Positions 7,171 through 13,920 of a DNA stretch of 64,000 nucleotides are shown piece after piece. The notes below the pieces were generated by a model. The model was given only the letters and a program-made list of their open reading frames with translations. It had not been told where the DNA came from and ran no database searches. Origin of the DNA: Mobula hypostoma (taxonomy: Eukaryota); contig NC_086097.1 in assembly GCF_963921235.1 (NCBI RefSeq), positions 133,426,001 to 133,490,000 on the forward strand. The letters run 5' to 3'. Positions within the stretch are counted from its first letter, which is position 1. Every line of letters begins with the position of its first letter. The position numbers and the translations under genes are program-made.

Positions 7171-7835
7171 TTTCCTCCAAAAATACTTTATTCAGAATTA
7201 TTACAAAATAAAGTTATTTACATATAAGAAAAAACATTCATTGACTCTCAGTCCTTATTCAATAAAGTTATTTACAATAAAATTATGCGTTGACTCTCTG
7301 TTCATATACAAATGAAAGATGTTTACAATAAACTGTTCATTTACTCTCAAACCTTGGTCAAGAGTTAAGACTTATTAACAATAAAATTATCAACAATAAA
7401 GGCAGGCATTGGCTCTAATGCTTTTTCCAAATTAACAATTCCACCCACTCCTGGGGCACCATGTTGATTATCTGTCCACACCGCTGATGAGGGCTAGTCT
7501 CCTCCCCACCCAACCCCTCACACTCCCACGGGTGATGAACCTTAAACTGTGGTCCTTCCCCACTGGGCCTTCGCGGTGGCCGCACCAAGCTTGAGTGCCT
7601 CCCTCAGCACGTACTCCTGCAGGCAGGAGTGAGCCAGTCGGCAGCATTCAGTCACGGGCATCTCCATGTGCTGGCAGACCAAAGCGCGTCTTTCACCGAA
7701 TTGATGATCTGCCAGCAGCACCGGATGTTTGTCTCCGTGTGCGTCCCCGGGAACAGCCCGTAGATCACGGAGTCCTCGGTAACGCAGCTGCTGGGCATGA
7801 ATCTTAGCACTGTCCCTTCCATTCTCCTCCACACC
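7171..7835 (-). mobile_element. Tx1-clade LINE 3' fragment
   Basis: C-terminal ORF2 peptides VTEDSVIYGLFPGTHTETNIRCCWQIINSVKDALWSA and LQEYVLREALKLGAATAKAQWGRTTV*, then an AT-rich 3' UTR with AATAAA and A-tail. Confidence 0.8.
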
Positions 7836-8396: not shown

Positions 8397-10262
8397 TGGT
8401 GTACTGTATGGCCAACAGTATAATAAGGGACTACTTTACGTTGCATGCGTTATAGAAACATAGAAACATAGAAAATAGGTGCAGGAGTAGGCCATTCGGC
8501 CCTTCGAGCCTACACCGCCATTTATTATGATCATGGCTGATCATCCAACTCAGAACCCTGCCCCAGCCTTCCCTCCATACCCCCTGACCCCCGTAGCCAC
8601 AAGGGCCATATCTAACTCCCTCTTAAACATAGCCAATGAACTGGCCTCAACTGTTTCCTGTGGCAGAGAATTCCACAGATTCACCACTCTCTGTGTGAAT
8701 AAGTTTTTCCTAATCTCGGTCCTAAAAGGCTTCCCCTCTATCCTCAAACTGTGACCCCTTGTTCTGGACTTCCCCAACATCGGGAACAATCTTCCTGCAT
8801 CTAGCCTGTCCAATCCCTTTAGGATCTTGTACGTTTCAATCAGATCCCCCCTCAATCTTCTAAATTCCAATGAGTACAAGCCCAGTTCATCCAGTCTTTC
8901 TTCATATGAAAGTCCTGCCATCCCAGGAATCAATCTGGTGAACCTTCTTTGTACTCCCTCTATGGCAAAGATGTCTTTCCTCAGATTAGGGGACCAAAAC
9001 TGCACACAATACTCCAGGTGTGGTCTCACCAAGGCCTTGTACAACTGCAGTAGTACCTCCCTGCTCCTGTACTCAAATCCTCTCGCTATAAATGCCAGCA
9101 TACCATTCGCCTTTTTCACCGCCTGCTGTACCTGCATGCCCACTTTCAATGACTGGTGTATAATGACACCCAGGTCTCGTTGCACCTCCCCTTTTCCTAA
9201 TCGGCCACCATTCAGATAATAATCTGTTTTCCTATTTTTGCCACCAAAGTGGATAACTTCACATTTATCCACATTAAATTGCATCTGCCATGAGTTTGCC
9301 CACTCACCCAACCTATCCAAGTCACCCTGCATCCTCTTAGCATCCTCCTCACTGCTAACACTGCCACCCAGCTTCGTGTCATCCGCAAACTTGGAGATGC
9401 TGCAGTTAATTCCCTCATCTAAGTCATTAATATATATTGTAAACAACTGGGGTCCCAGCACTGAGCCTTGCGGTACCCCACTAGTCACCGCCTGCCATTC
9501 TGAAAAGGTCCCGTTTATTCCCACTCTTTGCTTCCTGTCTGCTAACCAATTCTCCACCCACACCAATACCTTACCCCCAATACCGTGTGCTTTAATTTTG
9601 CACACTAATCTCCTGTGTGGGACCTTGTCAAAAGCCTTTTGAAAATCCAAATATACCACATCCACTGGTTCTCCCCTATCCACTCTACTAGTTACATCCT
9701 CAAAAAATTCTATGAGATTCGTCAGACATGATTTTCCTTTCACAAATCCATGCTGACTTTGTCCGATCATTTCACCGCTTTCCAAATGTGCTGTTATCAC
9801 ATCCTTGATAACTGACTCCAGCAGTTTCCCCACCACCGACGTTAGGCTAACCGGTCTATAATTCCCCGGTTTCTCTCTCCCTCCTTTTTTAAAAAGTGGG
9901 GTTACATTAGCCACCCTCCAATCCTCAGGAACTAGTCCAGAATCTTGAAAAATTCTCACTAATGCATCCACTATTTCTTGGGCTACTTCCTTAAGCACTC
10001 TAGGATGCAGACCATCTGGCCCTGGGGATTTATCTGCCTTCAATCCCTTCAATTTACCTAACACCACTTCCCTACTAACATGTATTTCACTCAGTTCCTC
10101 CATCTCACTGGATCCTCCGTCCCTTACTATTTCTTAGGCACATATTGATCTGTACATGTGTGCTGAGTTCGGATTATGCCAGTAAAGAACCATGAAACTT
10201 AGCTCCTGTCTCCAGCGTTTTTATTAATAGCATTGTTGTGTAACCAGGCTACATACACAACA
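8397..10262 (+). mobile_element. 5' LTR of Gypsy element, split by a CR1 insertion (LTR parts ~8397-8451 and ~10135-10262)
   Basis: 3' part ends ...ACACAACA just before the PBS and contains AGTAAA; the putative 5' part starts TGGTGT, an imperfect inverse of the 3' end; the left boundary is uncertain. Confidence 0.6.
8452..10134 (-). mobile_element. 5'-truncated young CR1 LINE with uninterrupted RT ORF (8550-10103, 517 aa)
   Basis: KSPGPDG, YRPVSLTS, YLDFQKAFDKV, GVPQGSVLGP, FADDTK motifs without stops; (TTTCTATG)n 3' tail. Confidence 0.96.
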
Positions 10263-10265
10263 AAT

Positions 10266-10276
10266 TGGCGACAAGG
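10266..10276 (+). promoter_or_regulatory. Primer-binding site, tRNA-Ser(GCU) type
   Basis: TGGCGACAAGG 3 nt after the LTR end; one mismatch (CpG decay) from TGGCGACGAGG, the complement of the tRNA-Ser(GCU) 3' end. Confidence 0.75.
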
Positions 10277-10648: not shown

Positions 10649-11840
10649 ATGGCGATGATTGGAACCATTACAGCATTTGATAGTGGCATTGAAAACTGGG
10701 CAACTTACATTGAAAGAGTGGAATTATATTGTGAGGCTAACAGTGTTAAGGACGAAAAGAAAGCCAGCACCTTACTCAGTATTATGAGTGCAAAAACATA
10801 TGGCCTGCTACAGAGCTTGTTAACCCCTGAAAAGCCAGCTGACAAAACATTCAAGTAAATAGTAGACACTCTCCAACAGCATTTAAACCTCAAACCACTG
10901 GTCATTGCTGAAAGATTTAAATTTCACAATTGGAATCAGAGCAAAAATGAAAGCATTTCTGAATATTGTACTGAATTGTGCAAATTATCGGAACGTTGTC
11001 AATTTGGAGTTGGTCTATCAGATGTATTGAGGGACAGGTTAGTGTGTGGCATGCACTGTGAAACCACACAAAAGAAGCTTCTGTGTGAAAGAGACCTTAC
11101 TTTCAAGAAAGCGCTAAACATTGAAATATCAACAGAAACAGTGGCACGGGATGCTTCCGAGATACAACAAAAATCTCTGGAATATGCCACAAATAAAATG
11201 TCACTGAACAGGAATGAAGGGAAGAAATGTTACCGTTGTGGGAACAGGTCACATGACCCAGATGGCTGGTGGTTTAAAGACAAAGAATGCTGAAACTGTG
11301 GCAAACAGGGCCACATTGGCAGAGTATGCAAAGCTAGTCAACAGCAGAAAAAGGGCAAAACACAGAGAAACAAGAAACCCCAGAAAGGAAAATACAACAA
11401 GGCACACAAAATGAAAGAAGGCAGTTCTGATGAAAACGACTCCAATGAAAGTGAATTGTCTTGTCGGCAACTTCACAGCGTGAAAGAGACAGACGATCGA
11501 AGAGTAATATGCATCACTCCACAAGTGGCAGGCGTGAGACTGAAAATGAAATTGGACACAGGCTCAGCCTTAGCAGAGATCTCTGTACATGACTACAAAT
11601 GATTATTTTCCTCACATATCTCTGAAATGAACTAAAGTACTGCTAAAGACTTACACAGGACAGAAAGTGCGTCCCAAAGGTAAAATTAAAGTGACAGTGA
11701 CCTACAGAGACAAAACACAGCAACTGAACCTCTATGTACTGAAAAATGGAGGACCACCGTTACTGGGACGTGAACGGCTCAGGAAAATCCAGTTGAGTTG
11801 GCACACAATCAAGGCACTAGATGTGTCAACAAAGGGGGGC
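10649..11840 (+). mobile_element. Gypsy (Mag-like) gag-protease, inactivated by stops and one frameshift
   Basis: MAMIGTITAFDSGIENWATYIER, LRDRLVCG, two CCHC-type knuckles (CYRCG..H, C*NCGKQGHIGRVC), protease LDTGSA, LLKTYTG, PPLLGR; ORF pieces 10649, 10976 and 11411 share one frame. Confidence 0.92.
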
Positions 11841-11855
11841 AGCTCAGCGGGGAAG

Positions 11856-12502
11856 ATGTCCACAGCTCTCCTCTCACCCACTGTCGATTATTACAACGAC
11901 GAGGAGGAGCTAGACAGCATTGACGATGAGGACAATGCAGTATCTGTAGCCGTGACTCAGATGAAGATAGAGGATGCAAGGGAGACAGATGTTGCCAATA
12001 AGCAGTATGATGAAGACTACCTGGAAGTAAAAGAGCAGATGTACCAGAAGAAATTGACATCTCTCAAAAGACAGCTACAGCAGTTACAGGAAGGCACTTA
12101 GCAGGAGTATCAGAAAAGGATGAAGAAACTAGATCAACAATACAAGAATACGAAATGCAGAGCTTTTTCTGCAACTGAAGACAGAACAAGTGGAAAGGAA
12201 TTATATTAAAGAGAAGAAAGCAGCAGTGAAGGAATTTGAAGATAAAAAGATTGAGTTAGAAGAAAAGAAAAAGATGATTGAGAATGAGAGGCTATCAATA
12301 GAACTCACAGGAGATTCTATGGAGGTAAAGTGAATAATGACTAGGAAACTAAGGAGGAGACCTAATGACCCTGTTCCAATTACCAACAAAAGACGAAAAC
12401 ATGCACCTGCGCTGTTAAAATACTTGTTAACAGATGAACAGATAATGGAAGATCTGCGAACTCTCAATAAGCTTAAATCTCCAAAATGACCAGCATCTCC
12501 AT
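11856..12502 (+). pseudogene. SUDS3: SUDS3 (Sin3-HDAC subunit SDS3) processed pseudogene, 5' part
   Basis: Intronless [119 protein letters not shown]; matches recalled vertebrate SUDS3; has stops and indels. Confidence 0.95.
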
Positions 12503-13473
12503 TCAAACAGAACAGTTTTCACACAAAGTAAATCTCAAACCAATCATTTCCTCCATTGAGAATCATACACTTAATCCTTTGCAGGAAAGTTTCTTTTGCA
12601 AGTACATATTCTGAATCCTCAGCCAATGTGTCTTGTTTTTCACAAAGAAGTTGGGAAACATCATCAAAAGCGAGGCAAATTCTGGCAACAAACTGTAAGG
12701 TTTCTACTGTTGTATTTTCACAGTTGTGCTGAATGTGCACCTGAAGGAATTCTCCCCCTTGAGCCAGACTGCAGGTAATCCTTAATATCAGCAAAACTGC
12801 ACTTTAACAGCAGCTTAAGAACAATGGAATGAACAACAGGATTTCAATCAACTGCTTCATCAAACGGTGAATGATTACTGGTAAAGTACTGATCTTTCTG
12901 TAAGTCATTGGATTGTCCCGAGTTTTGAATAACTAGCAGAGACAGCAGATCACCAACTACTTCTTTGCTGGTGGCAAGTGATCTTTGAAACAGACCATGG
13001 AAACCGAAGCTATGAAAAATGCATCACACCTCTTGCGAAATATGACTAATTTTGCTACAGCTTCACTTATTTCTTCTGTTACCACTACTACTACTACTAC
13101 GTCGACTCAGGCCTAGGGGGTACATAATTATCATCTACAGAAGTACGGCACAGTGGGCAGAGTCGTTGTCCTGATTCAAGCCACCGCTTTATACATCTTA
13201 AACAGTAAAAATTATCACATGGAAGCAGGATGGGATCACTGAGTTCTCCTAAACAAATTGTACATTCTTTCAGATCATACCTGAAGAACAGACATCCTGC
13301 ACTATTTTCACAGTCCGAGGACTTGAACCACAGCCCAAAAGAGCCCTCGGGATCTCACATCAAAGTTACTGTTCAAACTCTTTGCAAGTTGACCAACATA
13401 GAATGCAACCTTGTTCTCCAATTTATCATGTATTTCTTTAACTTCCAAAATGATGTGTTCCACAAAAAGTGAT
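12503..13473 (-). pseudogene. RNF213: RNF213 (mysterin) processed internal fragment including the RING finger
   Basis: SLFVEHIIL..., RING CTICLGELSDPILLPCDNFYCLRCIKRWLESGQRLCPLC (13148-13264), FRKRCDAFFIASVSMVCFKDHLPP, SPFDEAVD*NPVVHSIVLKLLLKCSFADIKDYLQ, VETLQFVARICLAFD, NDWFEIYFV*KL; colinear with recalled human RNF213; flanked by AGCATCTCCAT duplication. Confidence 0.9.
13086..13117 (-). mobile_element. 32-bp extreme 3' end of a non-LTR element with (GTA)n tail
   Basis: Minus strand CCTAGGCCTGAGTCGACG(TAG)n interrupts the RNF213 codons YVP|VVTEE; family not determined. Confidence 0.55.
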
Positions 13474-13765
13474 AGCATCTCCATCTTCTCCTGAGCATCT
13501 TCCCAGCACTCCTGCTGAATCACCAACACAAAGATATGAAGCAGAAATAGAAGATTGAAAGTTATATTACGATTAGAGATGGTATCATAAAGGTCAGGCT
13601 ATCTATTTGGAATCCAAGGAGAATACGAAGACTGGCTGTGTAATTAGCTCAGTTGGAACAAATGAGATATGGGTAAGGAAGACAAGTGATAGCACAAAGA
13701 TGCGTCTATATCTAGGACAGCTGCACAGACGAGTCTTCATTATACGGAGGCGATCTGCTGCCTAG
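13474..13765 (+). pseudogene. SUDS3: SUDS3 processed pseudogene, 3' part to the stop codon (3' UTR continues to ~13860 with ATTAAA at 13851)
   Basis: [94 protein letters not shown]. Confidence 0.95.
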
Positions 13766-13871
13766 AACTCTTAGCAAGTTGGAGGCGCACATCTTCTTAA
13801 CTCCCTATGCTCGGAGGTCAACTTTTCATGACTTTTATATGGAAATCTGTATTAAAACAAACAAGGTTATT

Positions 13872-13910
13872 GACAGACATTACCCGGAGAGGCAGAGAAG
13901 ACCCCCCCAC
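13872..13910 (+). mobile_element. Gypsy integrase extreme C-terminus remnant
   Basis: Encodes DRHYPERQRRPP, matching the RRYPxRxRRPP ending typical of Mag-like Gypsy pol; short, so moderate confidence. Confidence 0.6.
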
Positions 13911-13920
13911 CCCAATCAAA

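Follow-up and report, generated by a model that had tools for sequence, protein, structure and literature searches.

Antisense RNF213 cDNA inside a SUDS3-bearing Gypsy family of Mobula hypostoma

How does a fragment of one gene come to lie, in reverse, inside a processed copy of another? The window analysed here, a stretch of 64,000 nucleotides from the genome of Mobula hypostoma, raises this question: two exact copies of AGCATCTCCAT stand in it at 12492-12502 and 13474-13484, 971 bp apart, and split a SUDS3 reading frame at exactly the positions that a first-pass annotation had reported. That annotation had also read the intervening sequence as an antisense, colinear, intronless and tail-less RNF213 cDNA that includes the RING finger, and comparison with the parent gene bears this out. 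The minus strand of the insert encodes a RING finger (coding stretch approximately 13148-13264, minus strand; Pfam zf-RING_2, E 1.4e-10) for which the 10 best PDB matches are all RNF213, with E values of 7.5e-17 to 7e-16 and the next match at 5e-8. The RNF213 parent, found on contig C68 through one RING match and one RZ-finger match, aligns with the insert at 89-100% over 8 exons spread across about 23 kb (G000:C68:48,810,686-48,833,701). AG and GT flank every exon, and joining the parental exons yields an open frame of 394 aa. Six of the exon-exon joints that the annotation had proposed looking for are crossed in the window, and the seventh falls in a segment absent from the window copy. Since 8 AG/GT-bounded exons are joined with their introns gone, the insert (12498-13475, minus strand), which is antisense to SUDS3 and to the surrounding element and has no poly(A), is a fragment of processed RNF213 mRNA.

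The joining of 8 exons rules out a DNA-level copy of a single RNF213 exon, and identical junctions in dozens of dispersed copies rule out an assembly chimera. The RNF213 frame does run on into KLFCLNG, as had been noticed, KLFCLNG being simply the parent's own sequence. The window copy additionally carries the private 3' tip of a LINE with a (GTA)n tail (13086-13120, minus strand), identical in 35/35 bases to a repeat at C68:48,887,495-529 and not found in sister copies; from one motif, we take its clade to be RTE-like. A second, distant RNF213-like gene (C68:41.27-41.30 Mb; L051-L055) has 30-54% protein identity to the insert and is not the donor.

This locus is a decayed member of a non-autonomous Ty3/Gypsy family in which pol has been replaced by a SUDS3 cDNA. 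Its parts lie on the plus strand of the window. The 5' LTR begins with TG at 8400, where it matches the LTR start of a sister copy, breaks off at about 8452, and resumes at 10134-10262, where it ends in CA and matches both ends of sister copies. Between the two parts lies a minus-strand LINE fragment (8453-10133) with a 527-aa open frame (10133-8553) and a short tandem tail near 8454, presumably CR1-like judging from its motifs. A putative primer-binding-site-like motif follows at 10266-10276, directly after the LTR end in sister copies, and then decayed Ty3/Gypsy gag and protease (10649-11843), with stops and a frameshift in the window. SUDS3 sits after these remnants and before the last integrase codons (11837-13878), with exons 1-9 and the start of exon 10 at 11837-12500, in the protease frame, and exons 10-12 plus a portion of the 3' UTR at 13476-13878. 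Both parts align to the parent (G000:C78:8,439,661-8,394,500), and the first matches Pfam Sds3. The parent has 12 exons over 59 kb (C78:8.38-8.44 Mb), and its 11 introns are gone from the copies.

In the SUDS3 capture, internal Gypsy sequence was replaced, with microsimilarity at both switches. The 5' junction carries the 7-nt GGGCAGC (11837-11843), common to pol-bearing copies and SUDS3 exon 1, and the commoner 3' junction carries the 7-nt GACAGAC, common to pol-bearing copies and the SUDS3 3' UTR, where the sequence goes back to the Gypsy integrase end (13872-13912). The polypurine tract is absent from the window copy and its 3' LTR has been lost. SUDS3 is in frame with the protease across 11631-12143, and a Gag-protease-SUDS3 fusion is thus a predicted product of the founder. 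A long 3' variant, with about 230 more SUDS3 UTR bases and less Gypsy (L072, L073, L075, L079, L093, L106, L126, and L127), shows no clear overlap at its switch, and neither 3' variant can be obtained from the other by deletion alone.

The locus, which the first-pass annotation read by itself, is one of hundreds of copies, and its RNF213 insertion is not a one-off. We estimate about 300 family copies in the genome, about a third of them with antisense RNF213. Junction patterns searched across the genome with up to 2 mismatches, and with reversed patterns as a control, gave 213 empty sites, 36 right junctions of the window type, and 70 long junctions, against 0 for the reversed controls; 13-14 of the 70 are near-matches to unsplit SUDS3. 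The estimated classes are 213 empty-site matches, about 56 long-junction copies, and about 35 window-type RNF213 copies. The first-pass annotation had asked whether other Gypsy-SUDS3 copies lack the insert, and the empty sites beside filled copies give the answer. A similarity search with the insert returned 303 candidates, 40 of which were scored. The 80 sequences that were classified (79 fetched and the window; the fetched stretch L125 holds no element and was left out) comprise 33 window-type, 24 long-junction, 17 empty, and 6 unclear copies, counts that differ from genome proportions in that the fetched copies were selected by similarity. Both 3' variants of the SUDS3 UTR occur in empty and in filled copies, which points to recombination among copies.

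Sister copies have the two LTRs, primer site, polypurine tract, and target duplication that define an LTR retrotransposon. Their LTRs are about 200-225 bp long, run from TG to CA, and differ by a median of 7.5% within a pair, and a perfect 5-bp target duplication is present in 11 of the 14 copies with both LTRs recovered (15 before one self-comparison was removed). From the 5-bp duplication and the short LTRs, we take the family to be possibly of the Mag-like clade. Pol-bearing relatives exist: 7 of 30 loci fetched with the protease piece run into reverse transcriptase, RNase H, and integrase, in Pfam order, and not into SUDS3. All 77 of the SUDS3 copies scored lack the same 24 nt, a stretch that occurs once in the genome, which indicates that the hundreds of SUDS3 copies derive from one capture. 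Segmental duplication is ruled out since the copies end at LTRs with differing 5-bp duplications. Other insertions are also present among the copies. Four (L104, L112, L134, and L136) carry gag-region insertions at window-equivalent positions 10707 and 10779 that open with a similar terminal motif, possibly PIF/Harbinger-like DNA transposons, and an empty-type copy (L066:3669-4352) carries an unrelated 684-bp repeat within the same SUDS3 target stretch.

The 11-bp duplication that the first-pass annotation took for the original footprint did not hold up. The SUDS3 parental target reads AGCATCTCCGT, with CCGT, so two of the 11 duplicated bases reflect CpG decay. Among the 30 window-type copies scored, the right repeat reads TCCGT in 14, TCCAT in 12, TCTGT in 3, and TTCGT in 1; the left repeat has G in 0 of 32 and TCCAT in 25 of 32, and it never has G because its last bases derive from RNF213. 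The aligned copies thus indicate a 9-bp repeat with a 3-nt overlap in the window-type subfamily. In the window the left repeat occupies 12492-12500 (plus strand), a 9-bp remnant whose last 3 nt (TCC) are shared with RNF213, and the right repeat occupies 13474-13494 (plus strand), a full 21-bp copy of what we infer to be the original duplication, its first 2 nt (AG) shared with RNF213.

Relative to the window type, the long-junction copies extend 12 bases further into SUDS3 and keep an extra 72 bases of RNF213, which displaces the older junction by 72 nt in the 3' direction of RNF213 and by 12 nt along SUDS3. At this junction SUDS3 matches antisense spliced RNF213 in 8 exact bases and, allowing one bulge, in 17/21, a match that straddles the joint between two RNF213 exons; a random pair would show 8 exact bases with a chance of 2.6e-5, and the pairing is better with spliced mRNA than with pre-mRNA. 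The long-junction pairing site is therefore likely to be where RNF213 was primed. A splicing intermediate ending at an RNF213 exon end is disfavoured, as the pairing extends into the next exon. A single deletion between two TCC motifs converts the long junction into that of the window, whose left junction is probably a later deletion scar. The long-junction copies are themselves truncated at the other end, most of them stopping at 845 and joining the Gypsy 3' region at a GGCAGAG overlap, and two reach about 1,000 of the 1,158 nt of RNF213; 30 of the 33 window-type copies reach 1,158. From these pieces we infer that the original insertion brought in an RNF213 cDNA of about 1.16 kb, duplicated 21 bp of the target and was later trimmed. 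None of the 62 RNF213-bearing sequences keeps both original junctions, and no two of the genome-wide right- and long-junction matches lie 1-1.2 kb from each other; the 21-bp duplication is accordingly a reconstruction. The right RNF213 junction (13474-13476; C78:8,394,508) coincides exactly with the joint of SUDS3 exons 9 and 10, and the left junction of the long type with a joint between RNF213 exons, possibly by chance together with AG-rich exon ends.

A further trimming step removed a 128-nt segment, kept in 12 of the 24 long-junction copies and lost in all 33 of the window type; its scar, together with a private 9-nt loss, lies at 12767-12768 (plus strand). On the element strand the segment opens with GT and closes with a run of pyrimidines followed by AG. 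Splicing of element RNA, on more than one occasion, is the likely cause of its loss; a deletion between short repeats may account for it instead. The loss is present on both haplotype backgrounds and may have recurred, so its sharing is no proof of a single origin.

The SUDS3 and RNF213 parts are of one age. Comparing their divergence from the parents, as the first-pass annotation had suggested, gave private divergence (the minority-state fraction) of 4.47% for SUDS3 and 4.53% for RNF213 and fourfold-site differences of 5/109 and 7/148. A tree built from 69 SUDS3 segments has a star-like shape and leaves the subfamilies unordered, with an A-B distance of 7.3% versus 7.3% for A-A. Because the divergence of the two cargoes is equal and distances within and between classes are alike, these data indicate that SUDS3 capture, RNF213 capture, and spread belong to one burst. 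The nonsynonymous to synonymous ratios of minority states, 2.44 and 3.09 versus neutral expectations of 2.88 and 2.74, suggest that the copies decayed neutrally, without sign of function. A functional retrogene is rejected, as the longest open frames in the 80 sequences are only fragments and private changes are near neutral. Contigs of three possibly-RNA runs contain parent-like SUDS3 and RNF213 and some element-type pieces, and one DNA run contains 2 reads; neither is given weight for expression or age.

Any account of how RNF213 entered starts from what is observed directly: SUDS3 was captured once, at 7-nt microhomologies; some copies are empty and others filled; the RNF213 cargo is spliced and antisense; the copies are dispersed, with LTRs and 5-bp target duplications; and the two cargoes are equal in age. 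Since empty and filled copies coexist, dispersed and of the same age, the second capture took place while the LTR chimera was mobile, as had been supposed. Given the antisense orientation, the textbook jump onto mRNA during minus-strand synthesis is excluded, barring an antisense donor. The geometry is that of a plus-strand DNA end primed on mRNA, either at a nicked chromosome or on a nascent plus strand in a particle; the footprint favours the former and the setting favours the element's own reverse transcriptase.

We tentatively favour the latter, a template switch by the element's own enzyme during plus-strand synthesis, at a confidence that stays a little short of even. A growing plus strand ending in SUDS3 exon 10 would have paired with RNF213 mRNA through the 8 exact bases and copied about 1.16 kb toward the mRNA's 5' end. 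Synthesis would then have switched back to the element at a 2-nt overlap lying 21 nt upstream, leaving an antisense insert and a 21-bp duplication. Pol-bearing relatives could have continued to copy the chimera in trans, deletions and probably one cryptic splice would have produced the present subfamilies, including that of the window, and all copies would thereafter have decayed neutrally. This family already captures mRNA by template switching, its other junctions carry 7-nt microhomologies of that kind, and the insertion site, TCAGGAGA, is not an A-rich priming site and has no TT/WAAAAWW target, the consensus being of the TT/AAAA type (PMC5322556). Capture in a particle would land in a replicating element by default and so explain the immediate amplification, and many LINE and DNA-transposon insertions within copies were private. 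Against it, the short duplication with a 2-nt 5' overlap is the usual footprint of target-primed reverse transcription, for which PMC5322556 gives staggers of 8-30 nt, and LINE reverse transcriptases exist in this genome. The Drosophila cases described in PMC5131818 are replacements (15/15), not insertions into a continuous element, our literature search found no direct precedent for antisense capture in plus-strand synthesis, the intact two-junction ancestor is missing, and the 128-nt loss leaves a single origin unproven.

The strongest rival, which we hold to be about one chance in three, is that a LINE (RTE, L1/Tx1, or CR1) nicked a genomic master copy and primed on RNF213 mRNA at the pairing site, with a 21-bp duplication and amplification to follow. 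The geometry fits exactly: the 3' overlap lies where the downstream repeat begins, the 5' overlap is 2 nt, the 21-bp duplication is within the 8-30 nt range, and either orientation is allowed (PMC5322556). LINE pieces are also abundant in the genome. However, the site is not A/T-rich, unlike the consensus for tailless copies, which PMC5322556 found only in L1-bearing therians and the anole; the LINE would have had to hit an active copy, presumably a very small share of a 3.5-Gb genome; and other nested LINE insertions were not amplified. The first-pass annotation had argued for an internally primed insertion of processed RNF213 mRNA by a LINE, or for RNA-templated break repair. Internal priming by microhomology stands, on 8 exons and 8 exact bases, but at the older junction 72 nt further, the priming site and duplication seen in the window being secondary; a LINE is possible and the element's own enzyme at least as likely.

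Other routes appear less probable. A break in a genomic or extrachromosomal copy, patched with RNF213 mRNA or cDNA, is unlikely: it would account for microhomology at both ends, and spliced mRNA capture at breaks has been reported in mouse zygotes (PMC4516963), but a clean 21-bp duplication requires a staggered break; sequence cannot separate the routes. A minus-strand switch whose template was an antisense transcript from an older retrocopy of RNF213 would be textbook capture and accounts for the orientation, yet the 40 scored of 46 RING candidates are 39 family copies and the parent, and the adjoining RNF213 exon has a single match, at the parent (1/1 candidate), which makes this quite improbable, with the proviso that the donor may be lost. 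Two independent RNF213 captures at one spot, one giving the type with the 9-bp duplication seen in the window and one the long-junction type, would fit the lack of an intact common ancestor, the 5 sites that separate the types, and the possibly recurrent 128-nt loss, but we consider this very improbable given the same mRNA block at the same 12-bp spot, the equal age, the one TCC-TCC deletion that converts long to short junction, the two long-junction copies that reach about 1,000 of 1,158 nt, and a different deletion in that stretch in another copy, L112.

Much of this has parallels. Published work already covers capture by LTR elements, chimeras of several genes, and their secondary spread (PMC5131818), as well as tailless, internally primed L1 copies (PMC5322556), and the Gypsy-SUDS3-RNF213 element is an unusual form of a known route of gene duplication. 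Like the LTR-mediated retrocopies of Tan et al. 2016 (PMC5131818), it has a partial host mRNA in place of pol, microsimilarity at the switches, no poly(A), and both LTRs kept, with at least 2 genes per element and secondary retroposition as a non-autonomous element, and the SUDS3 capture fits fully. RNF213 shares the microsimilarity (8 nt exact, 17/21; 2 nt) and the lack of poly(A), but it did not replace element sequence: it was inserted antisense with a duplication, and empty sites exist. There are also about 300 copies here and not few, and the supplements of PMC5131818 may contain antisense cases. Maize Bs1, as summarised there, likewise combines several host genes in one LTR element with switch points shared by all copies, but has 1-5 copies versus hundreds, all decayed, here.

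The poly(A) tail and TT/AAAA target of L1-type processed pseudogenes are not found. Tailless retropseudogenes (Noll et al. 2015, PMC5322556) resemble the RNF213 insert in having no tail, internal priming by target complementarity, and a short duplication, but they are L1 products at A-rich sites, as opposed to a non-A-rich site in a mobile LTR element of a cartilaginous fish; their traits (no tail, a target complementary to the 3' end, and a duplication of 8-35 nt) match the reconstructed ancestor only, and 0 of 62 copies are intact. Pxyfem of Plutella (PMC9674220) is also a multi-copy partial host-gene cDNA lying by LTR gag fragments in inverse orientation with microsimilarity, but its silencing RNAs have a shown role, whereas the copies described here are dispersed and decayed. 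It is possible, if rather doubtful, that an LTR reverse transcriptase can capture host mRNA in antisense through a plus-strand jump and return with a short duplication, leaving a LINE-like footprint without a LINE, and that the antisense RNF213 copies, roughly 90 in number and dispersed, could also have supplied putative silencing RNAs directed at this immune gene.

A preprint (10.64898/2026.06.26.734816) ranks SUDS3 as one of the leading parents of retrocopies in cartilaginous fishes. It attributes non-mammalian retrocopies to CR1/Tx1 LINEs and interprets the profiles of lineages as the outcome of selective filtering. Since hundreds of SUDS3 copies stem from what appears to be one capture, SUDS3 retrocopy counts can be inflated by a single hitch-hiking event. 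Our literature search found no paper on this Gypsy-SUDS3-RNF213 family and none that combines SUDS3 with elasmobranch. Among vertebrates, the family offers a large example of an LTR element capturing genes, and its copies are numerous enough to order SUDS3 capture, RNF213 insertion, trimming, and decay, and it illustrates that a neat duplication seen in one copy may be a late scar. The RNF213 copies also preserve an older state of RNF213. Relative to the parents, the copies share 25 nonsynonymous and 10 synonymous differences in RNF213, against 4 and 12 in SUDS3, which suggests that RNF213 has evolved fast since capture, with founder errors pooled into those counts.

Some smaller features were also recorded. 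The SUDS3 parent has an AT-AC intron of the minor-spliceosome type (C78:8,398,853-8,395,737; L187) that is correctly removed in the copies. Two copies (L145 and L146; C68:0.13 Mb and 1.88 Mb) are identical over 110 bases and possibly represent a recent or an assembly duplicate. A degenerate tandem array with units of about 50 nt lies at 7210-7430 of the window.
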